Part shown: positions 7,380-56,732 of the stretch, piece after piece
How positions within the stretch are numbered: the first letter of the stretch is position 1
Layout of the letters: every line of letters starts with the position of its first letter
Source: Verrucomicrobiota bacterium
Lineage (GTDB): Bacteria; Verrucomicrobiota; Verrucomicrobiia; Limisphaerales; UBA11358
Length of the DNA stretch: 64,000 nucleotides
Reading direction: 5' to 3'
Assembly: GCA_036803685.1 (NCBI GenBank)
Contig: DAIRTX010000006.1
Location: 3,797 to 67,796 of the forward strand
Translations under genes and position numbers: made by a program
Notes under the pieces: model-generated
Told to the model about the DNA's origin: nothing
The model's input: the letters and a program-made list of their open reading frames with translations, nothing else
Databases searched by the model: none

Positions 7380-10300
7380 TCACGGATACTCAACGAGCCG
7401 GTAGAATTTCATGGCCGTCGGCGCGTTCGTGTCCACGAAGGTGAAATTGGTGGTGACGGAAGTGATGTAAGGCGGAGTGGGCGGGATGTAGTTCCACACC
7501 ACCGGCGGCACCAGATTGGTCGTCCAGGCCACCTGGAACTGGTAATTGGTCGGCGCGGACCATTGGAGCTGGAAGAAACCGTTGGTCGTTACCGTGACGC
7601 TGGAAATGAGCACGGGCAGTGGATTGACGGTGACGGTGAAACGATTGGTGGCGCTGTTTGGCGGCAGGCTGTTGTCGGTGACGACGGTGGTAAAGGTGTT
7701 GACGGTGCCGGCCTGGGCCAAAGCGGGTGTCCAGGTGATGATGCCATTGGCGTTAATGCCCGGGGCCGGAAGGCCGGCGACGGTGGTGGTCAGCACATAA
7801 CTGAGCGTCGCGTTGGTGTTCAAATCCGTCGCGGTGTTGGTCACCACCAGCGGGGTCAGCGCCTCAATGGTCAGGTTCGGCTGGAACGGCAGGGTCAGCA
7901 CGTTCGTTGATTGCAGGAGGATCAACCGGTAAAAGCGCATCGGACCGAGCCCGCCACTTTGCGAGCCGTCGTCGAAGAAGCTGAACAGCCCGTTCGTCGG
8001 TGTCACCGGTCCGGTGTAGCCGATGATGTTGGTGAAGGTGTTCCACGCGGGCGGCGCGAGGTTGTCCGTCCATTGCACCTGGAATAAATCGTTGGTGGGC
8101 GCAAACCAAGTGAGCAGGAAGCCGTTCGTCACGCCGATATTGGTGGCCGTGATGCTGGAAATAAAAATGGTGTTGGTCAGCGACGGCACGTTGGTCGAAG
8201 TCAACAAATGAAAATCCACCTCGATTCCGAAAGTGACAGCGAAGCTGTTCGTGTTCTGCACGCCGAGATAATAAGTTGAGCCGGGCACCAGCGGCGGCGT
8301 GGTGCCGGCGCTCAAAACGACGGAACCGTTCGTTCCGGACGGATACGTGATGTCCGGCAACAACAATAGATTGGTCGTCGGAGGAGAGTTGGTGTCGAAC
8401 CACACATTCACCGGCGCCGTGGCGAAGAGCAGGATGTTGGTCGCGAAATCCGCGTTCGTCGGCACATTCACCACGTAATAGGTAATGCCACCGGCGGCGA
8501 CCGAGTTCGTTTGCGGCTGACCGCCCGGCAGGTTTATCAACGTGGTGACAGTGACGGTGAAACTGTTGGTCGCGCTCAACGAGGTGGCGTTGACGGCGGG
8601 GGGATTTGTATCGGTAACAACTGTGGTAAAGATGTTGGTGGTGCCGGCTTGTGCCAGGGTTGGCGTCCAGGTGATGACGCCATTGGTGTCAATCGTGGCA
8701 CCGGCTGGGAAGCTGATCAACTGGTAAGTCAAAGGGTTCACCGGAATGTCGGAATCGGTCGCCGTATTGGTCACGACGAGCGTGCTCAAGTCGTTGATAA
8801 TATAATTTGTCTGTGACGGCAGAACCGGCGGGGTGTTCACTTCATTCACCGTCACGGTGAAACTGTTGGTGGCGCTCAACGGCGGCGCACCGTTGTCCGT
8901 GACGACGGCGGTGATGATGTAAACCCCCGGTCCCTGAGCCTCGCCCGGTGTCCAGGTGATGACGCCGTTGCTGTTGACGACCGGCGGCGGATTCGTTGTC
9001 GCATAATTCAACGGCCAGCCGTTTGTGATCATGGCGTTCGTGTCAACGAGCATCGTCACTGTGTAAGTCAGCGTCTGCGGCGGCAGGTCCGAATCGTTCG
9101 CGGTGTTCGTCACCAACAGCGTCGTCATTTCATCCAGCGTCACTGGCGGCGGATTGGTGGTCAGCCAGAACGGCGGAGTGTTCGTGAGGTTGACGTTGAA
9201 TGACGAGGCGAGCGCCAGATTATGAAAATAACCGCTTGAGATGGCCACCACGTTGCTCAAGCCGGGGGGTATGCTCGTTTGATTGGTGCTATTGTCGCCC
9301 CAGGCCAGCACACTTCCGTCATTCTTCAACACCAGGCTGTGGAACCCTCCGGCGGCGACCGCCACCACATTGCTCAAGCCTGGCGGCACATCCGTTTGAC
9401 CGTCGCTGTTGTCGCCCCAGGCCACCACCGTCCCGTCGTATTTCAACGCCAGACTGTGAAAACCTCCACCCGCGATGGCCACCACATTGCTCAAGCCCGG
9501 CGGCACATCCGCTTGACCGGCGGCGTTGTCGCCCCAGGCAACCATCGTGCCATCATTCTTCACCGCCAAACTGTGGAAACCACCACCGGCAACGGCCACC
9601 ACATTGCTCAAGCCCGCTGGCACATTGGTCAGGCCGGCGATATTGTAGCCCCAAGCCACCACCCGGCCGTTGCTCTTCAACGCCAGACTGGACCATCTGC
9701 CGCCCGCGATATTCACCACACTGTTCAAACCCGCCGGCACATTCGTCTGGCCAGGAATCGTATTGGCGCCCCAAGCCGCCACCGTCCCGTTGTTCTTCAA
9801 CGCCAGACTGTAAAATTCCCCTCCCGCCACAGCCACCACGCCGTTCAAATCCACCGGCACATTCGTCTGACCATGGAACCCATCACCCCAGGCCAGCACC
9901 GTCCCGTCGTTTTTCAAGGCCAGGCTGTGATCATGAGCGGCGGCGACGGCCACCACATTGCTCAAGCCCGGCGGCACATTCGTCTGGCCGAGGTAATCGG
10001 CGCCCCAGGCTACCACGCCCGTTTCATCAAAAATCTGGTCGAAGCCATAGACCACTTCCACCACTTCCACGATATTGCTCACCACCAGGCGGAAATGATA
10101 CGGCTGGTTCATCACCAAACCGTTGATCTGGTTGGTCACATAAACCACATTGAAACTGCCGCCCACGCTGACCGGCGGCGTCTGGTTTCCGTAGCCTGCG
10201 CTGGTTCCCCATTCGAACCAGGCCGTGGTGGGCGGGCCATTGGGCGTGGCCATGCCGTTCAACTGGGCGCTCGTTCCCGTAACGGAAGTGGCCGGCTGCG

Positions 10301-13300
10301 TGAACGCAAACGGCGACAGGGCACCCGTCACGAAGACGGTAAAGTAATTCGTGACGCTCAAGTGCTGGTTGACCGGCGCCCAGGGATTGAAGTCCGTCAC
10401 CACCGTGGTGATCACGTTGGTGGTGAAAGCCTGCGCCAGCGTCGGCGTCCAGGTAATGATGCCCGTGTTGACATCAATGATCGGAACATTGGTGCCAGTC
10501 ACGGTGCTGGTCAGCGTGTACGTCAGCGGATTGGCCGGGATGTCCGAATCGCCGGCCGCGTTGGTCACGATCAGCGTGGAAAAGGCGTTGATGGTCTGAT
10601 TGGACGGTGTGCCCAAAAAGAACGGCGCCGTGTTCACTTCAATCACGATCACATTGAAACTGTTGGTCGTATGCAACGGCGGCACGCCGCTGTCGGTGAT
10701 GATGGTCTGGATGGTATAAAATCCCGGCCCCTGCGCTTCTGTCGGCGTCCAGGTAATGATGCCGCTGGCGCTGATGGCCACGCCGGGCGGACCGGACACC
10801 GAGTAAGTCAACGGCTGGTTTGTGCTGGAGGCGGTGTTCGTCACCGTCAGCAGGGTCAATTCATCAACGATTTGCGTTCCAATGGGCGGCGGGGCGGGCG
10901 GGAATAACAAGTGGAAGTCCACCTCGATTCCGTAGGTAATGTTGGAGGTGCCCGTGTTTTGCACGCCGAGATAATAAGTCCCGCCAGCCGCGAAATTGGT
11001 CGGCGCGCTGATGAGGCTCAAAACGGAGGAGCCTCCCGTCGAGTTGGGTATCAACAGGTAATCCGGCGGGGTGGTGCCGACGGGCAGCGTGGTCTGGTTG
11101 AACCACACATTCAACGGGCCGGTGGCGAAGAGCAGGCGGTTGGTGGCAATGTCCGCATTGATCGGGACGATGACCAGATAATACGCCATGCCGCCTGGGG
11201 GAATGACATTGGTCACCGCCAATCCGTTGGTGAGCACGCCGATTGAACTGACGGTGGTGGGGAAATTGAACCGCAACTGCCAGCTCACGAGCGTGTTCGT
11301 GAGACCGGCACCGGCGCGGTTGTCCCAAATTTCGAGCTGCCACTGGCCCAGCGCGTTCAGCCCCTTATAGGTGTCGAGCGATTGCTCGGGCAGATAATAC
11401 ACGTCACCGCCGTTCAGCACCGAGTTCGTGACATATTGGGTCGTAACCAGAAACTGGGTCAGGGCGAAATTGTCCAGCAACATTCCCGGCTCAAATCCGG
11501 CGACTTGCAGGACCGTGTTGCTCAGCGCGGCAGTGAAGGTGATGTTCGTGGTCTGCCAGTTGGTGTTGTTGCCGAAGAAAAGGAAATTAGTGCCACCCAC
11601 GGTCACCTGGGCCTCGGCCAGGCCTTGCGCGATGGACGGCGCGTTGGTGTCGTATTTGCCCGAGCTGCTGTGATTGCAAATGGCCTTGATTTCCGAGGCT
11701 GAGAGCGGGCGATTGTAAATGGTCGGCTCATCCATCATTCCATTGAAATGATTGGCAAAATTGCCTGCCGGCCTGACCCCCAGGAAGAAATCGACGCTGG
11801 TCCAAGGGGTAAAGCCGGTACCCAAATTCGCGCTTTGAACGACCCCGCCATTCCGGTACAGAACCGCCAATCCCGTTGCTTTGTTGTAAGTCATCGCTAC
11901 ATGTTGGAAAATGTTTCCCGTCATGGTCCCTCCCACCGAACTCAGGTAGTGCGCGGTGAGAGTGGTATCCATAATATTGGCGTAGAGATCACCGTCCCAA
12001 TTCCCCGAAATCCCAAATTGTGCACCAAGGGGCCCTGCGCCACTGCCGGAACCTACATTCCACTCCAACAGCGATTGGAGATTGTTGATTGGGGCGCCCA
12101 CCGGGTTGACCCAGGCATCGATGGTGTAACCGCTGTTGTTGATTCCAACATTGAGACTGGCACTGGCGGGGACCCTTACTTGCGAAGTGGAGCCGTTGAA
12201 GATAAACGCTTTCCCAACCACACCGTTGGTGTTAGTCATGTTGCTCGGGATGCCCGGGTTGTTGCTGATGCTGTCGTTCCCATTATTTTCCCCCCGCCAC
12301 AAGCTGACAGCGCCCGGCCCGCGATAGGCATACGACAGGGTGTAAGTCTGGTCCGGCACCGTGGGCAACAGGCGCGAGATCACGCCGTCGGCCAGCGCCA
12401 GCAGGTTGCTGCCCCGATAGGCCAGATTGGTATCAGTGATCACTGTGACCTGATTGGCGTTGACGGCCCAGCCGTCAAAGTAATGGCCCTGGGTGTAATC
12501 CCCGGCCGCTGCGCCTTCAAAGCCATTGGCCCCGCTCAATGGCGCCAGGTCAACCGCGTCCAAAAGAACCCCGGAAAAATTGCCTGAAGCATCCAGGGAA
12601 TGAAAAGCCAGGGATGTGGACAAAGAAGTTGCGGTGAACATGTAGGACACCGTTTGCCAATTGAGGTTCGCCCAGGTGTTGGTGTAATTCGCAACCACAT
12701 TGGTCACGACTGTGCCATTAATCGAAACGTTGGCTTGGGGGATATGGGGAGGATTCCCCATGGCTCCCAGGATGCTGTCCGGGTTGCGCGCGTAGGCGAA
12801 ACGAAGGATGTAAGTCTGGCCTGGAACAGTGGTGATGTTCGTGGAAATCCCTCCGGCACTGAAGCCATTCAGGTCCAACAACCAACCCCCTTCATAAGCG
12901 GTTTGTCCCCACGTTCCGTTGGTGACGACATCCACATTTTCGAAGTCAACCAGCCAGCCTCCGGCAAAACGGGTCCCGGCTGTGGGATTAATATTTGTAC
13001 TGCTCCCCAACTCGAAGGAATTGTGCCATCCAACGGCCGCATTGGTGACCGGCACCAGATTGGTCACCAGCACCGCATTGGTGACCAGCATGTTGGTCAG
13101 AATGCCGTGAAACGGCGGCACGGCATATTTGATGGGCGTCGTCGTCTTGTTCGTGTTTTCCGTCAGCACCAGATAGGCGTAGCTGGCCTGCAAGGCACGC
13201 ACCGTGTAATCCCAGCGGGTACCGATTTGCCCGCCGCCTGGGTCCATCACAATGGTTAGGTAGGATGAGTTGGTATAGGCAACATTGAATAGTCCACTAC

Positions 13301-16300
13301 CTAAAATAATCCCAGAATCAAAAATTTGATGTCCACTCTGGTCATAAATGACCATCTGATCCGGTTCAATGTTATAGAAATTGTAGAAAATGCTCAGCGT
13401 GCCGGTGGTCGGAGACACATTGATAATGTTGGTACCCCCCTCTGGACCGCCGGTGGACGAGACCGGGATGATGTTGGTGACGGCGAAGGTCGCGCCCATG
13501 CCGTTGGTGGTGGTGCCGCCGCGATTTTCCACGAGCAGACAACGTGTCCCATCCGGGCTGATCAAATGGAACACCAAATCGGACACGCGCTGATGATCCA
13601 CGCGCAAAGCGGCTTCCACCGACGAAATGGTCTGGGCCGCCGTCACAAAAATGGAATTCGTCATCACGGCGTCGTCCAGAATCGGCGTCGGGCCGCTGGA
13701 ACTGAAAATCACCTGCCCCGGCACCGCGCCCATACCGAACTTCGCGATAACATACACCGTCTGCGGAAGTATGCTCTCGTTGTACAAACCGACCCAGTAA
13801 CGGCCCGGCGGCAGCGGCGGGCCGATGGAAATGGAGCCGTCAAAACCCAGAAGCCCGCTGTTGGTCAGCCTCGCCGGCCCGAATTCATTGGTGTCCGTCA
13901 GTGTCGGTATGGCGCCGACTTTGACGAACAGATCCACCTGCCCGGTCCCGGTCAGGTTCGTGGCGTAGATCGTCAAATTGGTCGCGCCGGCGGGCACATC
14001 AATGAAATCGCGGAACCAACCCAGCGGCCCGAGGGTGGTGGTGATTCCCTTGGTCAGGTCCTGGTGCGGCTCAATCAACATTTGGAAGCCGGTCACGCTG
14101 CCGGTCTGGGTCAGCGAATCGTCCACTTCGGTCAAAATCCACGGGCCAATGGCTTGCTGGCCGACGTAATCGTTCAAACTGCCCGGTCCGTCGGACGGTT
14201 GCGAACCGACAATGTCTCCCTGCCCGCTGTTGTCATAAATAATCGTGTAAGGTCCGGGCGGATTGCCGAGTGAATCGTGATTGTTCAATACCGTCGTCCG
14301 CGACAGCCCGTTCTGGCCGCCGTGTGTCAGCGTCCCGAGGAGGTCGCCGAAATTCTGGTGCGTGATCGTGCTGGTCACGGTGCCGCGCTTGATTTCCATT
14401 GGATTTATGGCGAGGGCGAAAACGTATCCCACACCCGGATGCGCCGGACTGCCGTCGGGGATGTTGACCGGCAGCACCAGGCCGTTGACGATCTGGCTGC
14501 CGTTCGGGTTCATCTGGCTGAACGGGATGTCGGTGAAGATGGGAATAAATCCGTATTCCGATGCCTCCTGATCCTCCGAATACACGCCGACGTAATAAAC
14601 CTTGCCGGGCGCGGAATTGGTGTAATAGACGAACTCGATGCCTCCACGACCGACCGATTTATCCGCGTTGGAAATGACGACGGGGTCCAGGTTCATCAGC
14701 CCCGGATTGCTGCTGACGTAAAGGTCAATGTCCGCTTCGGGCCGCGTGGCGTTGGCCACTGTGTCTTCAAACACACCCATGCGCGGAATCGAGAGCGTGT
14801 CGGGAATGAAGGTGATGAACGCGGCGTTGGTGAAATCCGCCGCGCCGGTGTTGGTGATCACGTAGAAATGCCACTGGTTCGTCATGCCGAGCGTGACCAG
14901 CACGTTCGTGCCACCCAGTTGGATGCCGTTCAATTCCGTGCCCCCGGCGGTCAGTTGAATCGTGTTTGTGCCGAGCAGCGGCGTGCTCGCGCCGACGAAT
15001 TGATTCAACAACGGCGCGTTCGTCGTGGTCACAAAAGTCATTTGCTGGTCAGACGTGGGATTGGAAATGATCGGATTGTCCGTCGCCGTGAACGCGTTGG
15101 TGACCTCGCCGTTGCCGATGGAAATCACGAGCGCGAAATCCTGCACCACGTTGTTGGTGTGGGCGGTGACGGCGTTGACGTTGACGCGATAACCCAAAAC
15201 CGTGACGGAGAAGTTCGTGCCGGCACCCGGCGGCAGATAAACATTTTCAACATTGTTGATGGCATCGTAATTCGGCGCGTTCGTGCTGCTCTGCGCCGAA
15301 CTGAAGGTGCTCGATGCCGGGAAGTCGTTGCCGTAATAGACGATGGGATTGGTCGGATTGCTGAGATTGGTGACGACGAGGTTGAGATCGTTCACGAGCT
15401 TGATGGCGGCGGCCGGGTCGCCGGGCGGATCCGTCCATGCCAGCGTGATGCGCAACGGCAATGCCGCCGCCGCACTGGCAATAGTAAGGTGGTAGGTATG
15501 GCTGTCGCCCGTGGCCAGCGCGCTGGCCGGACTCTGGTCGAGAACAAGCATCGCCTCGCCGGTTGCGTTATTCACGTTCGTCGTGATTCCGGGTGGCAGC
15601 GAATTGGGCAGGTTAATCAACCCCCAACCTTGGTAATTGATCGAGTTTTGAGCCTGGAAATCGTAGTTCCCATCGGGCCGCGCACCGTTGATGAGCATTG
15701 CCTTGAGCAACGCCGGGCTGGGCGTAGTGTGCAGCGTGTTGGTGAAGTAATCCTGCATTAACACCAGCACACCGGACACATCCGCCGCCGACATGCTCGT
15801 GCCGGATTCGTAACGGTAGTAATGCGGAGGAACCAGCGAGTCCGGATCTCCGCCCAGCGAATTGTTCAAATTGCTCAACACCGTGTAATAATTTCCAAGG
15901 TCGTTCGTTGTGATGATTTCAGTAATAATATCGTAGTTGACCAGAAAGTTGTTGGTGTTACCCACTGCATACCAGAACCCGACGTTCTGGATATCCAGGA
16001 TGCTCGCGATGGCACCGCCGCTGTCCGGTGGAATGGAAACCTCGTTGTCGCCGGTCACGAAATCGTAAGTGTTGGTGGTCGGCAAATCCGCCTGCTCCAC
16101 ATAGATCGGCATGTTCGGCGGGAATGGCGGTGGCGAAAGAATGTTCGGGACAACTTGAATCATGACACCGACGGCGTTTCCGGGAACGAAAATGTTGTAA
16201 TAATTCAACGTTTGGGGAGCCACGGCCTGCTTGACGAATTCGGCAAAGTGATAATTCGTCGGGTTGTAATACGCCTTTTCGTCCCATTGCTGCGATCTGG

Positions 16301-17930
16301 TAGAGACAACAAATGTCCCTGGCGCGACCACGTCCGGTTTAAAACGGCCGTTGCCACTTTCAACGCCCACACCGACGTTGCCCCGGCTGGAATATCCGGC
16401 CACTTGAAAACTCGTGTCCGTCATCGGTTTCCAGACAGCGGCCGAGTTGCTGTTGCGGTCGGTGACAATGTTCGTGATGCTGCGCAATTGCTCCAGCGCA
16501 CCCACGGTAATCACGTTCTTGGCCGTGGCCGGTGACAGGATGGTATCCGGATTTCCACCGCCGCCGCCATCATTGCCGCCACCGGCGTTGCCCGCCGAAA
16601 ACACAAACAACACCGGCTGCGAACCAGTCATTTCCGGCAACGCATCGCGCACCGCCGCGTCGTAACTTGCCGCCGCCAGGTCGTAGGTGCTGTCGCCGTA
16701 GTTCCAACCGTTGTTGGAAATCAGAGCGTTCGTCCGCGCCGCCGCTTCCTGAAGCTCCCGGTCTGATGCGTTCCAGTCCATGGAGAGCAAATTCGCCAGC
16801 GGCGCCATGCCGCGAAACTGGCCGTTCGTTCCGGGCATGATTGAACCGGACGCGTTGGTCACGGTCTTTGATTCATAACCATCTCCCGCAATGATGCCCG
16901 CCACGTGTGTGCCGTGGCCGTCAGTGTCAACAAGGCTCGCCGGATTCCCGAAAACCCGGACGGGGGAACCCCCGCCGTTGCTGAAATCGGGATGGGTCGC
17001 GTCTATACCCGAATCGTTCACCACCACCAATACGTTGCTGCCGGAAAGATTGAGATAATTCGTCGTCGTTTGCGTGTCAACTGCCACGCCCACGGTCGCG
17101 CGGCTCAAATCATTCGCGTGAACGCGCGGATGATACGGTTCGACGATTTGCACGCCGGGCAGCGTGATCAGCGCCGTCCAATTCTTTGGCGGAATCACGC
17201 GTACGACCGGCCCGAACGGCGAACGGTCCTGCGCCAAAACTTTCCCCCCGAGCTTTTCAATCTCTTGAATCGTTTGCTGTGCGTTGTCGCCGAATAGCCC
17301 GAGATTCAACGCCGCGCCATCCGGCAGAGCCATTTGCCCAACCGCCAAAGTGAGCATTGACGACTGGATTTTGTAATACGGTTCATAGGGAATCACCGCC
17401 TGCGTCAACGGATTGCCCGCCAGCCCATTGGCCACGCCCGCTTGGGCGCGCACGAGATAGGCGTCGTTCGGAATGTAGGAGACAATCTCCGCGCCCGCCG
17501 ACGCGAGCATGGCGCGGAAAGCGTTGTCAATCGGCCCGCGCGCCTGGACGATGTAAGCCCCCGGATCGCCATGCGACCGCAAATGAACCGGAATGGAAAA
17601 ATTCAGCGGGCTGCCCGTGTCAATCAGCGCGTTCTCCAGCAAAATCGCATGGCGGTCGCCCACCAACTGCCCGATGGTCTTGGTCGTGTTGCTGAGGCGA
17701 TAAGCGAATTGGTTTGTTTTAGCTGAAGTTGCACCGTTTGTGGAAACGGTCTGGCCGGTCAAAATGTTCGGCGCGGTGGACGCGGAACGAACCGTCGTGA
17801 CCGTCGGCACGGCAACTTTTGGGAGCGCGGACGGCTTCGTCTGCGTGTTCGCGGCCCGGGGCCAAAGAAGCCACGCACCCGCCAGGCACAGCAGGCACAA
17901 CAAAATCCAGATGAACGGACGCGAACGCAT
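7380..17930 (-). CDS. Giant (3516 aa) S8 subtilase with P-domains, DUF642-like, LamG, Ig-like and RCC1 repeats
   Basis: Catalytic motifs VNDSGID, HGTHVAG, SAGN, GTSMS. N-terminal hydrophobic signal/anchor. Repeated TNTATDSD..LTY..GIITWTP..TNSFTVTV units. Ends KFYRLVEYP. Confidence 0.93.
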   Translation of the reverse strand: MRSRPFIWILLCLLCLAGAWLLWPRAANTQTKPSALPKVAVPTVTTVRSASTAPNILTGQTVSTNGATSAKTNQFAYRLSNTTKTIGQLVGDRHAILLENALIDTGSPLNFSIPVHLRSHGDPGAYIVQARGPIDNAFRAMLASAGAEIVSYIPNDAYLVRAQAGVANGLAGNPLTQAVIPYEPYYKIQSSMLTLAVGQMALPDGAALNLGLFGDNAQQTIQEIEKLGGKVLAQDRSPFGPVVRVIPPKNWTALITLPGVQIVEPYHPRVHANDLSRATVGVAVDTQTTTNYLNLSGSNVLVVVNDSGIDATHPDFSNGGGSPVRVFGNPASLVDTDGHGTHVAGIIAGDGYESKTVTNASGSIMPGTNGQFRGMAPLANLLSMDWNASDRELQEAAARTNALISNNGWNYGDSTYDLAAASYDAAVRDALPEMTGSQPVLFVFSAGNAGGGNDGGGGGNPDTILSPATAKNVITVGALEQLRSITNIVTDRNSNSAAVWKPMTDTSFQVAGYSSRGNVGVGVESGNGRFKPDVVAPGTFVVSTRSQQWDEKAYYNPTNYHFAEFVKQAVAPQTLNYYNIFVPGNAVGVMIQVVPNILSPPPFPPNMPIYVEQADLPTTNTYDFVTGDNEVSIPPDSGGAIASILDIQNVGFWYAVGNTNNFLVNYDIITEIITTNDLGNYYTVLSNLNNSLGGDPDSLVPPHYYRYESGTSMSAADVSGVLVLMQDYFTNTLHTTPSPALLKAMLINGARPDGNYDFQAQNSINYQGWGLINLPNSLPPGITTNVNNATGEAMLVLDQSPASALATGDSHTYHLTIASAAAALPLRITLAWTDPPGDPAAAIKLVNDLNLVVTNLSNPTNPIVYYGNDFPASSTFSSAQSSTNAPNYDAINNVENVYLPPGAGTNFSVTVLGYRVNVNAVTAHTNNVVQDFALVISIGNGEVTNAFTATDNPIISNPTSDQQMTFVTTTNAPLLNQFVGASTPLLGTNTIQLTAGGTELNGIQLGGTNVLVTLGMTNQWHFYVITNTGAADFTNAAFITFIPDTLSIPRMGVFEDTVANATRPEADIDLYVSSNPGLMNLDPVVISNADKSVGRGGIEFVYYTNSAPGKVYYVGVYSEDQEASEYGFIPIFTDIPFSQMNPNGSQIVNGLVLPVNIPDGSPAHPGVGYVFALAINPMEIKRGTVTSTITHQNFGDLLGTLTHGGQNGLSRTTVLNNHDSLGNPPGPYTIIYDNSGQGDIVGSQPSDGPGSLNDYVGQQAIGPWILTEVDDSLTQTGSVTGFQMLIEPHQDLTKGITTTLGPLGWFRDFIDVPAGATNLTIYATNLTGTGQVDLFVKVGAIPTLTDTNEFGPARLTNSGLLGFDGSISIGPPLPPGRYWVGLYNESILPQTVYVIAKFGMGAVPGQVIFSSSGPTPILDDAVMTNSIFVTAAQTISSVEAALRVDHQRVSDLVFHLISPDGTRCLLVENRGGTTTNGMGATFAVTNIIPVSSTGGPEGGTNIINVSPTTGTLSIFYNFYNIEPDQMVIYDQSGHQIFDSGIILGSGLFNVAYTNSSYLTIVMDPGGGQIGTRWDYTVRALQASYAYLVLTENTNKTTTPIKYAVPPFHGILTNMLVTNAVLVTNLVPVTNAAVGWHNSFELGSSTNINPTAGTRFAGGWLVDFENVDVVTNGTWGQTAYEGGWLLDLNGFSAGGISTNITTVPGQTYILRFAYARNPDSILGAMGNPPHIPQANVSINGTVVTNVVANYTNTWANLNWQTVSYMFTATSLSTSLAFHSLDASGNFSGVLLDAVDLAPLSGANGFEGAAAGDYTQGHYFDGWAVNANQVTVITDTNLAYRGSNLLALADGVISRLLPTVPDQTYTLSYAYRGPGAVSLWRGENNGNDSISNNPGIPSNMTNTNGVVGKAFIFNGSTSQVRVPASASLNVGINNSGYTIDAWVNPVGAPINNLQSLLEWNVGSGSGAGPLGAQFGISGNWDGDLYANIMDTTLTAHYLSSVGGTMTGNIFQHVAMTYNKATGLAVLYRNGGVVQSANLGTGFTPWTSVDFFLGVRPAGNFANHFNGMMDEPTIYNRPLSASEIKAICNHSSSGKYDTNAPSIAQGLAEAQVTVGGTNFLFFGNNTNWQTTNITFTAALSNTVLQVAGFEPGMLLDNFALTQFLVTTQYVTNSVLNGGDVYYLPEQSLDTYKGLNALGQWQLEIWDNRAGAGLTNTLVSWQLRFNFPTTVSSIGVLTNGLAVTNVIPPGGMAYYLVIVPINADIATNRLLFATGPLNVWFNQTTLPVGTTPPDYLLIPNSTGGSSVLSLISAPTNFAAGGTYYLGVQNTGTSNITYGIEVDFHLLFPPAPPPIGTQIVDELTLLTVTNTASSTNQPLTYSVSGPPGVAISASGIITWTPTEAQGPGFYTIQTIITDSGVPPLHTTNSFNVIVIEVNTAPFFLGTPSNQTINAFSTLIVTNAAGDSDIPANPLTYTLTSTVTGTNVPIIDVNTGIITWTPTLAQAFTTNVITTVVTDFNPWAPVNQHLSVTNYFTVFVTGALSPFAFTQPATSVTGTSAQLNGMATPNGPPTTAWFEWGTSAGYGNQTPPVSVGGSFNVVYVTNQINGLVMNQPYHFRLVVSNIVEVVEVVYGFDQIFDETGVVAWGADYLGQTNVPPGLSNVVAVAAAHDHSLALKNDGTVLAWGDGFHGQTNVPVDLNGVVAVAGGEFYSLALKNNGTVAAWGANTIPGQTNVPAGLNSVVNIAGGRWSSLALKSNGRVVAWGYNIAGLTNVPAGLSNVVAVAGGGFHSLAVKNDGTMVAWGDNAAGQADVPPGLSNVVAIAGGGFHSLALKYDGTVVAWGDNSDGQTDVPPGLSNVVAVAAGGFHSLVLKNDGSVLAWGDNSTNQTSIPPGLSNVVAISSGYFHNLALASSFNVNLTNTPPFWLTTNPPPVTLDEMTTLLVTNTANDSDLPPQTLTYTVTMLVDTNAMITNGWPLNYATTNPPPVVNSNGVITWTPGEAQGPGVYIITAVVTDNGAPPLSATNSFTVTVNEVNTPPVLPSQTNYIINDLSTLVVTNTATDSDIPVNPLTYQLISFPAGATIDTNGVITWTPTLAQAGTTNIFTTVVTDTNPPAVNATSLSATNSFTVTVTTLINLPGGQPQTNSVAAGGITYYVVNVPTNADFATNILLFATAPVNVWFDTNSPPTTNLLLLPDITYPSGTNGSVVLSAGTTPPLVPGSTYYLGVQNTNSFAVTFGIEVDFHLLTSTNVPSLTNTIFISSITATNIGVTNGFLLTWFAPTNDLFQVQWTDNLAPPAWNTFTNIIGYTGPVTPTNGLFSFFDDGSQSGGLGPMRFYRLILLQSTNVLTLPFQPNLTIEALTPLVVTNTATDLNTNATLSYVLTTTVAGLPAPGINANGIITWTPALAQAGTVNTFTTVVTDNSLPPNSATNRFTVTVNPLPVLISSVTVTTNGFFQLQWSAPTNYQFQVAWTTNLVPPVVWNYIPPTPPYITSVTTNFTFVDTNAPTAMKFYRLVEYP

Positions 17931-51257: not shown

Positions 51258-52526
51258 ATGAGCTCACCAAACAACATTGAAAAGTCTTTTTCACTGGCCA
51301 AAGAACGTTACGCCGGATTGGGCGTGGATATGCACCGCGCACTGAAGATCCTGGAGAAAATTCCAATCTCGCTCCACTGCTGGCAGGGCGACGACGTCGG
51401 CGGCTTTGAAAATTTCGGCGGGACGTTGGGCGGCGGACTTGTCGTCACGGGAAATTATCCGGGCAAGGCGCGGACGCCGGATGAACTCCGCGCCGACCTG
51501 GAGAAAACCTTTTCGCTCGTCCCGGGCAAGCACCGCCTCAATCTCCACGCCTTCTATGGCGAGTTCGGCAGCCGGAAAGTGGACCGCGATCAAATCACGC
51601 CGGCGCACTTCAAAAACTGGATTGCGTGGGCCAAACAAAACGGCATCGGCATGGACTTCAATCCGACCTGCTTCTCGCATCCGAAAGCGGCCGACGGCTT
51701 CACGCTGGCACACGCGGACAAAAACATCCGCCGGTTCTGGATCGAGCACTGCATCCGCTGCCGCGAAATCGGCGCGGCCATCGGCCAGGCGCTCGAAAAA
51801 ACCTGCATCACGAACGTCTGGATTCCCGACGGCATGAAGGACACGCCCGCCGACCGCAACGCGCCGCGCGCGCGGCTCGCCGAATCGCTGGATGCCATTT
51901 TTAAGAAACCGATTTCACAGGAGCTGAACCTTGACGCCGTCGAACCGAAACTGTTTGGCATCGGCAGCGAGAGCTACGTCGTCGGTTCGCACGAATTTTA
52001 TCTCGGTTATGCCGTCAGCCGGAAGAAATTACTGACGCTGGACGCCGGCCATTATCATCCGACCGAGGGCATCGCGGACAAAATCTCCAGTGTGCTGCAA
52101 TTTTTGCCGGAGATTTTGCTGCACGTCAGCCGCGGCGTCCGCTGGGACAGCGACCACGTGGTGATTTTGAACGACGATTTGCAGGCCATCGCCCGCGAAA
52201 TCGTGGCGAACGGTTTCGTTGACCGCGTCCACATCGGACTCGATTACTTCGACGCCAGCATCAATCGGGTTGCCGCCTGGATCATCGGCACGCGCAACAT
52301 GCTTCGCGCCCTGCTCTTCGCGCTGCTGGAACCGACGGCGAAACTTCGCGCCGCCGAAAGCGCCGGTGATTACACGACGCGCCTGGCGTTGCAGGAGGAA
52401 ATCAAGTCGCTGCCGTTCGGCGCGGTGTGGGATTTTTATTGTGAGAGCAAAGGCGTTCCGGTCGGCGAGGCGTGGCTGGCGGAAGTGAAGCGTTACGAAA
52501 AGAATGTCTTGAGCAAACGGCAGTAA
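51258..52526 (+). CDS. rhaA: L-rhamnose isomerase
   Basis: [78 protein letters not shown]. Confidence 0.96.
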
Positions 52527-52562: not shown

Positions 52563-53699
52563 ATGGGCAATCCATTCTTAGGCGTTTTCTTTCACTGGCT
52601 CGGCGGTCTCGCTTCCGGAAGTTTTTACGTGCCTTACCGCGGCGTGAAAAAGTGGTCGTGGGAAACCTACTGGCTCGTCGGCGGATTTTTCTCGTGAATC
52701 ATCTGCCCGTGACTGCTGGCGTCCCTCATGACCAACGATTTGTTGGGCGTGCTGAAGCAACAATCGGCGAGCACGCTGTGGTGGACGTATTTCTTCGGCG
52801 CCATGTGGGGCTTCGGCGGGCTGACGTTTGGTCTGACCATGCGTTACCTCGGCATGTCGCTGGGCATGGGTGTGGCGTTGGGCTACTGCGCGGCGTTTGG
52901 AACACTGGTGCCGCCGATTTTCAAACAGTTCATGCCGAACCTCCCGGTGGGAGCAAGCATCAAGGAAATCGCCACTTCCACACCCGGACAGATCACGCTG
53001 GCGGGGGTGGCGGTTTGTTTGCTGGGCATCGGCATCGCCGCGCTGGCGGGTTTCACCAAGGAAAGGGAAATGCCGGAAGAGCAAAAAAAGAAGGTCATCA
53101 AGGAATTCAATTTCAAGAAGGGCATTTTGGTGGCAACCTTTTCCGGCATCATGAGCGCGTGCTTTGCTTTTGCGCTCACGGCGGGCAATCCGATCGGCGA
53201 CGCCTCCCTGACGGCGGGCACCAACAAAATCTGGACCGGCCTCCCCAAGCTCATCGTGGTGCTGCTCGGCGGCTTCACGACGAACTGCATCTGGTGCGTG
53301 CTGCTGAATTTGAAAAACCGCAGCGGCTACCAATACTTTTCTTCCCATATCCGCGCCGAACACGCTTCCACGCCGGGCGCGGCTGTTGCCGTGTCGCAAA
53401 CCGATCTCAAGGTGCCAGTGCTGGCCAACTATCTTTTCTCCGCCCTGGCCGGCACCTGCTGGTATTTTCAATTCTTCTTCTACACGATGGGCGAGACGCA
53501 GATGGGCAAATACAGCTTCGCAAGCTGGACGCTGCACATGGCGAGCATCATCATTTTCAGCACGATGTGGGGCTGGATTTTGCACGAGTGGAAAGGCTCC
53601 AGCAAGAAGGCGCACCTGCTCATTGGCGGTGGCATCGCCACACTCGTGCTCTCGACCATCATCATCGGTTTCGGCACCTATTTGAAGAGCAAGCAATAG
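52563..53699 (+). pseudogene. rhaT: L-rhamnose/H+ symporter with two in-frame TGA codons at Trp positions
   Basis: MGNPFLGVFFHWLGGLASGSFYVPY..KKWSWETYWLVGGFFS*IICP*LLA continues in frame into ORF 52728-53699. TGA at 52695 and 52710. Confidence 0.85.
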
Positions 53700-53705
53700 T
53701 CGGCC

Positions 53706-54020
53706 ATGAAACGCCACGCCTTCAAAATGAAGTTGAAGCCCGGCGTGGCGGCGGAATACAAAAAGCGTCACGACGAAATCTGGCCGGAGCTGGCGGCGGA
53801 ACTGCGGGCGGCGGGCGTTTCGGATTACTCGATTTTCCTCGATGAAGAGACGCTCACGCTGTTCGCCGTTCAAAAGTTGAGCAAAAAAAATTCCGCCGCT
53901 GATTTGCCCAATTCCCCCATCGTCCGCAAATGGTGGGATTACATGGCCCCGTTGATGGAAGTGCATCCCGACAACGCACCCGTCGCGAAACCGCTCAAGG
54001 AAGTCTTTCACCTCGACTGA
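53706..54020 (+). CDS. rhaM: L-rhamnose mutarotase
   Basis: AFKMKLKPG..EYKKRHDEIWPEL..YSIFLD..RKWWDYMA..EVFHLD. Confidence 0.95.
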   Translation: MKRHAFKMKLKPGVAAEYKKRHDEIWPELAAELRAAGVSDYSIFLDEETLTLFAVQKLSKKNSAADLPNSPIVRKWWDYMAPLMEVHPDNAPVAKPLKEVFHLD

Positions 54021-54066: not shown

Positions 54067-54157
54067 GGTAAACCCATGGCAGTCTGCGTGTCTTCGCGGG
54101 TTCATCCTGTGATACCAATTCTCCGTAACAACCGGAACTTTGGTTGATTGTGTGGAA

Positions 54158-54235
54158 CCCCTCACCCGGTCCCGCAATGCGCACTCCGGGACCACCTCTC
54201 CCCGCTTGGGCGGGGAGAGGGACGGGGGTGAGGGG
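54158..54235. repeat. CCCCTCACCC...GGGGAGAGGG...GGGTGAGGGG REP-type nested hairpin
   Basis: Nested inverted repeats downstream of the sigma gene; may also act as a terminator. Confidence 0.75.
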
Positions 54236-54301
54236 CGTTTAGTTTTGATCCGATTAACGTTGAGAAAGGTATGACTGCTCCACCGACAGATAACGCCATC
54301 T

Positions 54302-55336
54302 TCACGCCGCCACCGCAAACGCTTCATCGGTGGCAGGACGGTCGCGCTCCTCCATTCCGGCCCGCAATTTCTTGAGCGCCTCCTCCTGGATCTGCCGGAT
54401 GCGTTCGCGGGTCACACCAAAATGCTCACCAACCTCTTCCAGGGTTTTCGGCCGGCCGTCATTCAGCCCAAAACGCAGGGCGAGGATCGCGCTTTCGCGC
54501 CTGGTGAGGGTGGCCAGAACTTCCCGCACCAGGTTCCGGTCGGTTTCCCGGATGAGCCGGTCAAAGGGCAATGCCGCATTCGGGTCGGCCACCACTTCCG
54601 AGACGCGACTCGACTCGTCGTCACCCAGCGGCGCGTCCAGTGAAACCGGCGCCCGGGACGCCTGGCGATATTGCCGCACGCGCCGCGGATTGAGTCCCAA
54701 AGCGTCCGCCACCTCTTCATCGGTCGGGTCCCGGTCGAGGACTTCGCGGAGCTTCCGTTCCGCGCGACGGATATGGGTCATCTTGTCGACCACATGGACC
54801 GGCAGGCGGATGGTCTTCGACTGGTTCGCCAATGCCCGCAGGATGCTCTGCTTGATCCACCACGAGGCGTAAGTGGAGAGCTTCGCTCCCTTCCTGGGAT
54901 CAAACCGTTCCACTCCCTTCATCAAGCCGATGTTGCCCTCATTGATGAGGTCGAGCAGCGGCAGGCCCAGCCCGTCATAGTCGCGGGCGATTTTCACCAC
55001 CAACCGCAGGTTAGCCTTGATCATCTGTTCGCGCGCCGCTTTGTCACCCCGCTTGATTCGCCGGGCGAGCGCGATTTCCTCCTTGGGCGTCAGCAATTGC
55101 ACCTGGCCGATCTCGCGGAGATAGAGTTGCAAGGCGTCGCCGCGGGGCAAATCTGCCCGCACTGGTTCCGCCGGCTCGCTTTCCGTCGCCACCGGCGGGG
55201 TCGGCAGTACCCCGGCGGTGGGTGACGCCGACAAAGCACGACTTCGCTTCGGCAGACGCGACGGGGCCAAATGGATGCGAGACGGTGTGAGGCTGGTCGC
55301 CCTCGACCGGTAAGTCCGCTGAAATATGGTTTTCAT
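54302..55336 (-). CDS. RpoD/RpoS-like sigma70 factor paralogue (no region 1.1)
   Basis: LQLYLREIG, ANLRLVVKIA, DLINEGNIGLMKGVERFD, STYASWWIKQ, TLEEVG..FGVTRERIRQI. Confidence 0.95.
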   Translation of the reverse strand: MKTIFQRTYRSRATSLTPSRIHLAPSRLPKRSRALSASPTAGVLPTPPVATESEPAEPVRADLPRGDALQLYLREIGQVQLLTPKEEIALARRIKRGDKAAREQMIKANLRLVVKIARDYDGLGLPLLDLINEGNIGLMKGVERFDPRKGAKLSTYASWWIKQSILRALANQSKTIRLPVHVVDKMTHIRRAERKLREVLDRDPTDEEVADALGLNPRRVRQYRQASRAPVSLDAPLGDDESSRVSEVVADPNAALPFDRLIRETDRNLVREVLATLTRRESAILALRFGLNDGRPKTLEEVGEHFGVTRERIRQIQEEALKKLRAGMEERDRPATDEAFAVAA

Positions 55337-55375
55337 TTGTTTCCCTCAGTTCTTTTGGATAAGTGAGTGTGGGCC

Positions 55376-55708
55376 TCAGGCAGCCACGGCCAGCGCTTCC
55401 AGTTTGGAAATAATTACCTTCTTACCCACGACCCCCGCGATTTGATGACGCACTTCGCCGCCGGCGAAATAGAGCAACGTCGGAATCGCCTGGATGCCGA
55501 AGCGCTCCGCCAGCACAGGATGGTTGTCCACGTTGACCTTGGCGACTTTCACGCGACCGGATTGTTCCGTGGCGATTTCGTCGAGCACGGGCGCGAGCAT
55601 TTTGCACGGCCCGCACCACCCGGCCCAAAAGTCCACGCGGACGGGTTGCGCTGATTTCAGGACTTCGGTTTCAAAATTCGCTTCGTTGATTTCAATGGTC
55701 GCTTTCAT
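55376..55708 (-). CDS. trxA: Thioredoxin
   Basis: DFWAGWCGPCK, KVNVD, IQAIPTLLYF. Confidence 0.95.
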   Translation of the reverse strand: MKATIEINEANFETEVLKSAQPVRVDFWAGWCGPCKMLAPVLDEIATEQSGRVKVAKVNVDNHPVLAERFGIQAIPTLLYFAGGEVRHQIAGVVGKKVIISKLEALAVAA

Positions 55709-55756
55709 ATTTCAGTTCCTGGTTGTTTCAGTTGTCGGAATGCGCCGACGCCCCCG

Positions 55757-56095
55757 TCAGGCCGCCAGCACCAAAACCGGGTTTGCACGCCGCACGGATT
55801 GCTGCTGCCGGTCCCAAGCGATGACCGCCTGGACCTTCTCCGTGGCGAGCGTCGGGAAGACGAGGTGGGGATACCTCGTCTGCCGGGCCGCCGCCTCGGC
55901 TTCATTCAAGGCCAGCCGGAGCAGGCGTTCCTGCGATTGGAGCGCGTGGGATGATTCGGCGAAGATCGCCTCTTTGACCCTTGCAACCTGCGCGAGAATC
56001 TTCTGGCACGAGGCCAGGCAGGCGCCTTTGAAAGTGGTTCCGGCTTCCGCGTTCCCGCGGTTCCGGTTCGTATCATTCAGTTTCATATTCTGCAT
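55757..56095 (-). CDS. Small helical hypothetical protein
   Basis: 112 aa, co-oriented in the operon, CLASC motif, LALNEAEA..YPHLVFP segment. Confidence 0.65.
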   Translation of the reverse strand: MQNMKLNDTNRNRGNAEAGTTFKGACLASCQKILAQVARVKEAIFAESSHALQSQERLLRLALNEAEAAARQTRYPHLVFPTLATEKVQAVIAWDRQQQSVRRANPVLVLAA

Positions 56096-56105
56096 CTTTC
56101 ACTTT

Positions 56106-56128
56106 TATGTAACATTTATAGTTACATA
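56106..56128. promoter_or_regulatory. Putative Rrf2 operator 1
   Basis: Perfect inverted repeat TATGTAAC-N7-GTTACATA, just downstream of minus-strand TTGACG-N16-TAATAT. Confidence 0.7.
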
Positions 56129-56149
56129 TTAATCCAAAAAAAGAGAACG

Positions 56150-56596
56150 TCAATCAACTTTTTCCCGACCGCAGTTGCCCGAGGCTTTCACCGCGCCGAT
56201 CACAGTGGCCAGGGTGGTCTTCTCCAGGTCCCGTTCCAGGGCGGCTTCTGCCGACGCAAAAACCTTGTCCAATGTCGCCCGGATGCAATGGCCCACCGGG
56301 CACGCCGCGTTGGGTTTTCGCGAAGGCGTGGCAAAAGGTTCAACATCCTCGACTGCCCGATAAACTTGGGCCAGATTGATATGCCCGGGCGAACGGCTCA
56401 AACGGGAACCCGACCCGGCCCCTTTGCCGGTCTCCACCAGTTTGGCCCGTTGCAAGGCCAGCAGGAGCCGCCGGACAATGACCGGGTTGGTGTTGACGCT
56501 GGCCGCCAGCAAGACCGACGTGACCCGGTCGCCCTCCTTGTAAGCGAGGACGGCCAGCACGTGAACCGCCATGGCAAAGCGACAACTGGTTCTCAT
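56150..56596 (-). CDS. Rrf2-family transcriptional regulator (YwnA/SaiR/HypR-like)
   Basis: FAMAVHVL, LAASVNTNPVIVRRLL, G.GSG.RL.R....I.L..VY.AV, CPVG motif. Confidence 0.92.
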   Translation of the reverse strand: MRTSCRFAMAVHVLAVLAYKEGDRVTSVLLAASVNTNPVIVRRLLLALQRAKLVETGKGAGSGSRLSRSPGHINLAQVYRAVEDVEPFATPSRKPNAACPVGHCIRATLDKVFASAEAALERDLEKTTLATVIGAVKASGNCGREKVD

Positions 56597-56608
56597 AACC
56601 TGCAAATT

Positions 56609-56629
56609 AAGTAACTTCAGTGATTACAT
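56609..56629. promoter_or_regulatory. Putative Rrf2 operator 2 (autoregulatory)
   Basis: AAGTAAC-N7-ATTACAT, adjacent to minus-strand TTGACA (56631-56636). Confidence 0.6.
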
Positions 56630-56732
56630 TTGTCAACTGGAAATTGAAAGGGAAAGGGATTCGCGTCACGCACCCTGGAGTTGATGCTGAAAATCCGGCT
56701 CTTCCCGCCCCAGTCAGGCCGGGGAGTTGAAT

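Follow-up and report, generated by a model that had tools for sequence, protein, structure and literature searches.

HypR, SaiR and probably YwnA belong to the Rrf2 repressors without an Fe-S cluster, and NaOCl or diamide inactivates them through intersubunit disulfides; the HypR operator of Staphylococcus aureus, TAATTGTAACTA-N3-CAGTTACAATTA, has been defined experimentally and lies over the -10 element, and the target of SaiR is spxA2 (PMC6067689). In Streptomyces, 67 of 71 orthologues of the sigma factor sigma-AntA share a conserved C-terminal Ala-Ala. ClpXP degrades sigma-AntA in vitro, and exchange of the two residues for Asp-Asp stabilises the protein (PMC7142297). Here we describe a gene module that shares features with both systems. 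It lies in a 64-kb stretch of contig DAIRTX010000006.1 from a Verrucomicrobiota bacterium, referred to as the window in the following, and consists of genes for an Rrf2 regulator (rrf2), a protein of an undescribed family (hyp), a thioredoxin (trx) and a sigma-70 family factor (sigma). On balance, we read it as a module for redox or electrophile stress in the order Limisphaerales, that is, an operon derepressed by oxidants or electrophiles whose sigma factor would carry a built-in ClpXP-type degron. We consider this reading slightly better than an even bet.

All module genes are located on the minus strand. The rrf2 gene (56150-56596) encodes 148 amino acids if translation starts at the ATG at 56596, which is probably the real start and fits orthologues beginning MRTSCRF; the start of the mechanically called open reading frame (ORF) is a TTG at 56605. 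It is followed by hyp (55757-56095, 112 amino acids, ending ..ANPVLVLAA), where a second ATG at 56086 corresponds to the start in most orthologues, by trx (55376-55708, 110 amino acids with a WCGPC motif, ending ..KLEALAVAA) and by sigma (54302-55336, 344 amino acids, ending ..RPATDEAFAVAA). The spacers measure 48 nt between hyp and trx and 39 nt between trx and sigma, and a consensus scan detected no terminator-like site in either gap. According to gene-by-gene BLAST and 160 fetched loci, the order Rrf2-hyp-trx-sigma is repeated across dozens of species-level Limisphaerales genomes; a complete genome of the order, OY969416.1, has the operon at around 5.29 Mb. The closest relatives of the sigma factor all stem from Verrucomicrobiota metagenome-assembled genomes (MAGs) of this order (Pedosphaera group), with peat, bog and soil as sources. 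Some of the orthologous operons contain genes for a nitroreductase, a short-chain dehydrogenase (SDR), a DUF5069 protein and an HtrA-like protease between trx and sigma; the nitroreductase, the SDR and the protease are what a regulon for oxidants or electrophiles would be expected to contain.

The repressor is a winged-helix protein of the Rrf2 family (PF02082, E=1e-27, 97 bits against a cut-off of 30). Its nearest structure in the PDB is YwnA of Bacillus subtilis (1xd7, E=1e-23), and the NPxCPVG segment is included in the alignment: Cys102 in the AACPVG sequence of the repressor falls on the cysteine in NPKCPVG of YwnA (Cys97), which is equivalent to Cys99 of HypR. Cys8, Cys102 and Cys107 (the latter two within ..AACPVGHC..) are (almost) invariant across 64 Rrf2 orthologues. 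Near the dimerisation helix, Cys102 and Cys107 are the only cysteines (C-x4-C), complemented by Cys8 close to the N-terminus, which is unlike the C-x5-C-x5/6-C arrangement of NsrR and IscR. The best specific NCBIfam model is HypR (NF041852), with 48 bits and a cut-off of 180; as judged by these comparisons, the regulator is of the same type as HypR and not a HypR orthologue. Its own C-terminus lacks an Ala-Ala tail and is consistently of the charged K-K-x-x type, with a charged residue among the last four positions in 62 of 63 proteins. The assignment as a thiol-sensing repressor of the YwnA/HypR/SaiR type is well supported by the sequence comparison.

Upstream of rrf2, the -35 hexamer TTGACA can be read in the sequence (56631-56636, minus strand), followed by operator 1, TGTAATCACTGAAGTTACT (TGTAAY-N7-RTTAC; 56610-56628, minus strand), in the spacer/-10 region of the same promoter. 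A consensus scan revealed the putative promoter of hyp, trx and sigma (56126-56153, minus strand), composed of a -35 hexamer TTGACG over the stop codon of rrf2, a T-rich spacer of 16 nt and a -10 hexamer TAATAT. Operator 2, TGTAACTATAAATGTTACA (56108-56126, minus strand), is a perfect palindrome that abuts this -10 hexamer. Within the whole window, TGTAAYN7RTTACW occurs at just these two sites; 0.5 matches are expected by chance, and none of 100 shuffles gave as many as four strand-matches. Of 59 distinct orthologous loci, about 55 have operators at both promoters in positions that correspond to those in the window; TTGACA and then an operator precede rrf2 in nearly all of these 59, and the hyp promoter retains its layout of TTGAC, T-run and operator. 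The half-sites and their spacing equal those of the HypR operator. It is well supported by these sequence data that the Rrf2 protein autoregulates its gene and represses hyp-trx-sigma via the two conserved operators. The original prediction had placed the genes behind a CPVG-containing Rrf2 repressor with matching operators and had proposed a thiol or oxidative-stress setting. Conservation of the module together with its operators bears out the first part, and the second is in line with the YwnA/HypR/SaiR-type regulator, the HypR-like operator and the accessory nitroreductase, SDR and HtrA-like protease genes.

The sigma factor comprises regions 1.2, 2, 3 and 4 of the sigma-70 family (PF00140, PF04542, PF04539 and PF04545, all above cut-offs) and has no region 1.1. 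With scores under the equivalog cut-offs of both RpoD (NF004208, 327 vs 555) and RpoS (TIGR02394, 314 vs 379), it looks like an alternative, group-2-type paralogue; tail-less sigma paralogues closer to the consensus are present in each genome, too. The N-terminal residues 1-66 (55139-55336) are strongly basic, predicted to be disordered and show the conserved positions MKTxFKRxxRSR..L..P.RVRL. This segment could serve for contacts with nucleic acid or as an additional degron. Its basic character is the reverse of the acidic region 1.1 in primary sigma factors.

At the other end of the protein, the sequence A-T-D-E-A-F-A-V-A-A (54305-54334, minus strand) forms an ssrA-like candidate degron that is conserved and predicted to be disordered. 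In an AlphaFold2 model based on 35 orthologues, regions 1.2-4 are confident, and residues 334-344 have no secondary structure and a predicted local distance difference test (pLDDT) score below 50; residues 108-112 of hyp also score below 50, so that both tails are accessible as far as structure prediction goes. We compared the 120 closest sigma homologues in a collection of 5.8 billion proteins, of which 62 end in AA and 41 in AV, with a family tail consensus of ..KMEERDRPxx(D/E)ExxA(L/F)AVA(A/V). When only distinct sigma factors linked to Rrf2 are counted, A[AV] endings are found in 40 of 46 (87%; 29 AA and 11 AV), compared to AA in five of 64 sigma paralogues away from Rrf2, two of which are orthologues with a different upstream region. 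In the right-aligned tails, the information content amounts to 3.2-3.7 bits at positions -4 to -2 vs 1.2-2.6 bits at -12 to -7, which indicates a motif anchored on the free C-terminus. All four GCN codons are used for the last two alanines. This synonymous variation argues that the peptide is under selection rather than a DNA or RNA element, and on this basis we ruled out a nucleotide element conserved at the 3' ends. Based on these sequence features, the C-terminus of sigma is likely a built-in ClpXP degron.

All three products downstream of rrf2 expose a non-polar x-A-A at the free C-terminus (..FAVAA in sigma, ..LAVAA in the thioredoxin, ..LVLAA in hyp), and conservation anchored on the terminus under protein-level selection was found for sigma and hyp and in part for the thioredoxin. 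The original prediction had started from three consecutive genes ending in ..PVLVLAA, ..EALAVAA and ..ATDEAFAVAA and from the lack of further AA-ended proteins in the window. Minus-strand translation confirms the former, and a greedy set of 45 window ORFs of at least 80 amino acids contains no such ending besides the trio (0 further). It had also named unconserved tails in orthologues as an observation that would speak against it; the tails turned out to be conserved in 87% of the Rrf2-linked sigma factors and in about two thirds of the hyp proteins. As a background, five of 940 other proxy genes (0.5%) on ~1.5 Mb of related Limisphaerales DNA end in AA (1/527 in the first 80 loci alone), and three consecutive AA endings would be expected by chance at ~1e-7 per triplet. 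Alanine accounts for ~11% of all residues in these related genomes, which would be the basis for explaining the endings by chance or by the base composition of a GC-rich genome. Against the 5/940 of the background stand 52-72% AA endings in sigma, hyp and a family of TetR regulators that is linked to hyp (see below), and the endings are kept across orthologues with 60-97% identity, with codons that vary synonymously. The background counts and the synonymous codons refute chance or composition as the source of the endings, and we assign next to no probability to it.

The tail of sigma resembles the peptide tags encoded by transfer-messenger RNA (tmRNA). Compared to the Escherichia coli tag ANDENYALAA, ATDEAFAVAA shows six of ten identical and two conservatively exchanged residues, and eight of ten residues are identical to the deltaproteobacterial tag ADDYAFAVAA; ANDNSFAVAA and GNNEDNLAVAA are further actual tags of this kind. 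Residue for residue, the tail would thus be a plausible tmRNA tag. Two generic tmRNA-pattern scans of a genome collection, one for tags ending in V-A-A/V and one for tags ending in A-L-A-A, retrieved at least ~200 genuine tmRNAs. Verrucomicrobiota are absent from the 91 true tmRNAs among the matches listed for the V-A-A/V scan, and the lone Limisphaerales match (L174) is not a tmRNA. At least nine Verrucomicrobiota tags occur among the matches listed; all of them end in ..ALAA and seven in ..(E/D)LALAA, namely ANEELALAA (two genomes), ANSNELALAA, ANHELALAA and the Chthoniobacterales-type tags ADHQDLALAA (two) and ADHEDLALAA. The remaining two are DNTEYALAA of Opitutales and a locus from Akkermansiaceae with a match to the ELALAA coding pattern and no ARAGORN gene call. 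None of the Verrucomicrobiota tmRNAs among these matches was placed in Limisphaerales by flanking-gene similarity or cluster names. A tmRNA gene was found neither in the window nor in the 160 related loci, and smpB is absent from those loci. At the level of the phylum, sigma tail and tags have in common an acidic stretch that is followed by L-A-(L/V)-A-A.

Such tails might serve functions other than degradation by ClpXP. They could be docking peptides for a PDZ domain, for instance that of the operon-encoded, cytoplasmic-looking HtrA-like protease, or for hyp, and recruit their carriers to a partner or to another protease. Hydrophobic C-terminal peptides are established ligands of PDZ domains, as in DegS and Tsp, and the variants ..VKA, ..VPA and ..AV suit a loose rule of a hydrophobic end better than a strict LAA rule. 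Moreover, the operons of L001/L104, L100, L103, L114 and L159 have, between trx and sigma, a gene for a Trypsin_2+PDZ protein whose N-terminus is neither hydrophobic nor signal-peptide-like (L001:4873-5991, L100:5913-6986, L103:6533-7597, L114:5759-6859, L159:1856-2926). However, the protease gene occurs in only about six of 46 operons, its presence is independent of the type of tail, and the likeness of the sigma tail to whole tmRNA tags extends beyond the hydrophobic end to the acidic stretch. We regard docking as improbable.

Alternatively, the sigma tail could have a role in transcription, as an acidic-hydrophobic segment after region 4.2 that is autoinhibitory or contacts an activator or RNA polymerase, in which case the other Ala-rich ends would be unrelated helix ends. 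RpoD and RpoS also possess 14-16 residues beyond the last helix of region 4.2, an acidic stretch with a hydrophobic end could fold back onto the basic region 4, and the C-terminus of the thioredoxin does not exceed that of TrxA in length and is weakly conserved. This explanation is difficult to reconcile with four unrelated, context-linked families (sigma, hyp, TetR and partly the thioredoxin) that share the same ending, which is rare at 0.5% in the background. Furthermore, the degree of conservation is greatest right at the terminus, as expected if a free C-terminus is recognised, and structure prediction leaves the tail unstructured. We judge it to be about as improbable as docking.

The degron reading extends to hyp to some degree. 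The protein has no Pfam or NCBIfam match, a Pfam search with 26 family members gave nothing, a profile search of PDB sequences was without match, and the best Foldseek hit of the AlphaFold2 model against the PDB has an E-value of 4. There are 638 homologues and, with clustering at 50% identity, 788 representatives. The model is a predicted helical hairpin (pLDDT 81; the tail was addressed above), and the family has the conserved core LALNEAEAxAWQTxYPHLVFPxLAxEK, with a CxxxC in close relatives. The tail L-V-L-A-A (55760-55774, minus strand) is a candidate degron with conserved endings: 79 of the best 120 homologues (about 66%) end in AA, mostly as ..LAA (..LVLAA, ..FALAA or ..LALAA). In 112 homologues, Leu at -3 reaches 74%, Ala at -2 79% and Ala at -1 77%, the linker before them is variable, and the alanine codons vary synonymously. 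Among more distant representatives, 41 of 120 end in AA. From its ..LAA tail, hyp is probably short-lived as well.

The third protein of the trio is clearly a thioredoxin (PF00085, E=2e-29; TIGR01068, 114 bits vs a cut-off of 96.8; WCGPC). Of the operon-linked thioredoxins, 28/36 end in Ala and 9/36 (about 25%) in AA, and ..VKA and ..VPA are commoner. E. coli TrxA ends in ..NLA, and the C-terminus of the module thioredoxin is no longer than that of TrxA. Judged by these endings, the AA of the thioredoxin appears to be a trait of this and some other genomes and not of the module, and the family as a whole gives no support for rapid turnover of the thioredoxin. The proposal that all three products are hard-coded for proteolysis can consequently be upheld, as far as AA tails indicate it, for this genome and not for the module, in which three of 26 complete operons have the full set and the thioredoxin contributes in nine of 36.

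If these elements act together, the module would operate as follows. A dimeric Rrf2 thiol-switch repressor would bind two TGTAAY-N7-RTTACA operators, one at its own promoter and one at the promoter of hyp, trx, the variable detoxification genes and sigma. Oxidation or alkylation of Cys102 in the CPVG motif, with Cys8 and/or Cys107 as partners, would release the repressor by analogy to HypR and SaiR, and the operon would be transcribed. Sigma may then redirect RNA polymerase to a wider regulon, while the thioredoxin would restore thiols and probably re-reduce the repressor. The sigma tail, (D/E)E-x-x-A-(L/F)-A-V-A-(A/V)-COOH, would be a degron for an AAA+ protease, with ClpXP as the first candidate and ClpAP or FtsH as possible others; ClpAP and FtsH also read non-polar C-termini. 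Sigma would in this way be gone quickly once the operon is re-repressed, resulting in a pulse-like, self-terminating response, and hyp with its similar ..LAA tail would probably be short-lived, too.

Several observations weigh against this reading. The AV endings concern 41 of the 120 sigma orthologues, and a few others end in ..AE or ..TE or are tail-less. Tags ending in ..AAV and ..ASV are reported from the work of Andersen and colleagues in 1998 to be still degraded in E. coli, although more slowly, with GFP half-lives that were longer and yet short; the A-V endings would be compatible with a weaker degron. Most module thioredoxins end in ..VKA or ..VPA, and only the three of 26 complete operons mentioned above have AA at the end of all three proteins. 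Among the distant hyp homologues, 13 of 120 end in ..AE, which would not be a ClpX motif. The Rrf2 protein scores far under the HypR equivalog cut-off, the second redox cysteine is off the HypR position, and the repressor may instead hold an Fe-S cluster, for example with a mixed ligand set like that of RsrR. Finally, the comparison with tmRNA tags holds at the level of the phylum only, and the at least nine tags there end in ..ALAA, mostly LALAA, vs ..LAVAA or ..FAVAA in sigma.

The hyp family has a second home. In at least 16 loci, hyp is the first gene after a TetR repressor (TetR_N + TetR_C_13) and precedes an RND efflux pair of an HlyD-type adaptor and an AcrB-like pump (L112, L131, L138, L140, L143, L146-L149, L152-L157, L159 and L160; hyp at about 5000-5330 in most). 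An AA ending is present in 13 of the 18 hyp-linked TetR proteins. The palindromic operator TAGTTGACTAxxTAGTC precedes tetR, an inverted copy of it is found in the tetR-hyp spacer, and both contexts have a common layout of regulator stop codon, T-run, promoter with the palindromic operator of the respective regulator, and hyp. In this respect, the region around the hyp promoter resembles a portable cassette. The T-run itself comprises 7-9 residues and is found right after the stop codon of the regulator and just upstream of hyp in Rrf2 and TetR contexts alike (56127-56147 in the window and the equivalent spacers of L001-L160).

As the TetR-RND operons hold hyp equally and are without a sigma gene, hyp is not a sigma-specific partner, and a general role as anti-sigma factor was ruled out. 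Its position and tail invite the idea of a role in the turnover of AA-tailed regulators. One could speculate that it is part of a timer in Limisphaerales stress operons, in which hyp is always first after the repressor and the regulators (sigma, TetR) end in AA-COOH. It would then modulate proteolysis by ClpXP or by HtrA-PDZ as a competitor, adaptor or anti-adaptor and set the half-life of its own controlling regulator. We consider this a long shot.

GC-rich nested hairpins are located 60-150 nt past the sigma stop codon (54150-54240, minus strand), including a perfect stem of 11 bp at 54195-54220. The RNA fold has -73.5 kcal/mol (z=-5.3), the 26-nt hairpin core has a single occurrence in the window, and the consensus scan called no canonical T-tailed terminator at this site. 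The operon likely ends or is terminated at these hairpins. Directly downstream of the module, the plus strand contains rhamnose-utilisation-like ORFs, as judged by eye from their translations: an L-rhamnose-isomerase-like (51258-52526), a RhaT-like permease (52728-53699) and a mutarotase-like ORF (53706-54020). The window also contains a minus-strand ORF of 3516 amino acids (7380-17930) with a high GC content at third codon positions (GC3) of 0.75. Among the related contigs with the operon or a sigma paralogue, eleven (L013, L021, L023, L026, L030, L039, L052, L053, L106, L145 and L157) carry odd record titles (Bifidobacterium, Acidobacteriaceae, Limnocylindrales, Pseudomonadales, Dongiaceae); the MAGs in question have clearly been given wrong labels or are contaminated.

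Provided that the tail functions as a degron, the module would contain the first sigma factor of the four-region, RpoD/RpoS-like kind with a level set by a hard-wired mimic of a tmRNA tag. The principle of sigma-AntA would then extend from one Streptomyces ECF sigma factor to another phylum and another class of sigma factors, and self-limiting thiol-stress logic would have a third independent build beside Spx-ClpXP and sigmaR-RsrA. Limisphaerales, an abundant and almost uncultured order of soil and peat, would moreover gain its first proposed regulatory circuit of whatever kind. In practical terms, the locus offers a cleanly defined pair of operator and repressor and a family, hyp, of about 800 sequence clusters with a very consistent genomic position. 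The natural tail variants ..VAA, ..VAV, ..MAA and ..VKA may be graded degrons for tuning the half-life of proteins. To call the circuit undescribed, as the original prediction did, is too strong, since the AA degron of sigma-AntA is published (PMC7142297) and SaiR controls Spx, which is degraded by ClpXP. Thiol-switch Rrf2 proteins, a sigma factor with an Ala-Ala degron and self-limiting disulfide-stress circuits are each already known singly. What is new is their combination in Verrucomicrobiota, a four-region sigma factor with a full tag-like tail, the occurrence of the tail across context-linked families, and the hyp family.

Compared to HypR, SaiR and YwnA, the repressor has the same Rrf2 winged helix-turn-helix fold and the CP[VI]G cysteine that opens the dimerisation helix. 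With HypR it furthermore shares TGTAAC..GTTACA half-sites 7 nt apart over the -10 element, autoregulation and control of an adjacent detoxification operon, binding being predicted here. Like SaiR, which acts on spxA2, it would govern a regulator of stress, in this case an alternative sigma factor that is probably degraded. Spx is the master regulator of disulfide stress and itself a ClpXP substrate. The systems differ in the partner cysteines, which would be Cys8 and Cys107 here and are represented by Cys33 in HypR, in the targets (an alternative sigma factor and a thioredoxin instead of MerA or Spx) and in the host phylum, which is Verrucomicrobiota here.

With sigma-AntA, the sigma factor has in common that no cognate anti-sigma factor is encoded nearby and that the terminus is conserved (67/71 there, 87% A[AV] here), the degradation of the module sigma being predicted. 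Yet sigma-AntA is a two-domain orphan ECF (group 4) factor of Streptomyces that serves an antibiotic gene cluster, whereas the module encodes a four-region RpoD/RpoS-like protein, with a tail that is longer and tmRNA-tag-like, in a redox-repressed operon with other tail-bearing proteins. The logic of the proposed circuit is the same as that of Spx-YjbH-ClpXP in Firmicutes and of sigmaR/sigmaR'-RsrA-TrxBA in Streptomyces. In these circuits, a disulfide-stress regulator that is short-lived due to Clp induces thioredoxin, which feeds back on the sensor. The components differ: Spx is an ArsC-fold protein that binds RNA polymerase and has a ..LAN degron and the adaptor YjbH, and sigmaR is an ECF sigma factor with a ZAS anti-sigma factor, the degron of sigmaR' being an N-terminal extension. 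The sensor of the module is instead an Rrf2 repressor that would act on transcription.

Natural ssrA-like C-terminal degrons are also known from the C-motif 1 substrates of E. coli ClpX and from ClgR and PopR of Streptomyces, and anti-sigma factors of Mycobacterium tuberculosis have been reported with an ssrA-like degron that is read by ClpX (bioRxiv 10.1101/491043). The module resembles these cases in the non-polar x-A-A-COOH on regulatory proteins. It differs from them in that the motif is common to co-located families (sigma, hyp and TetR) within one order, and in that the motif of sigma includes an acidic segment.

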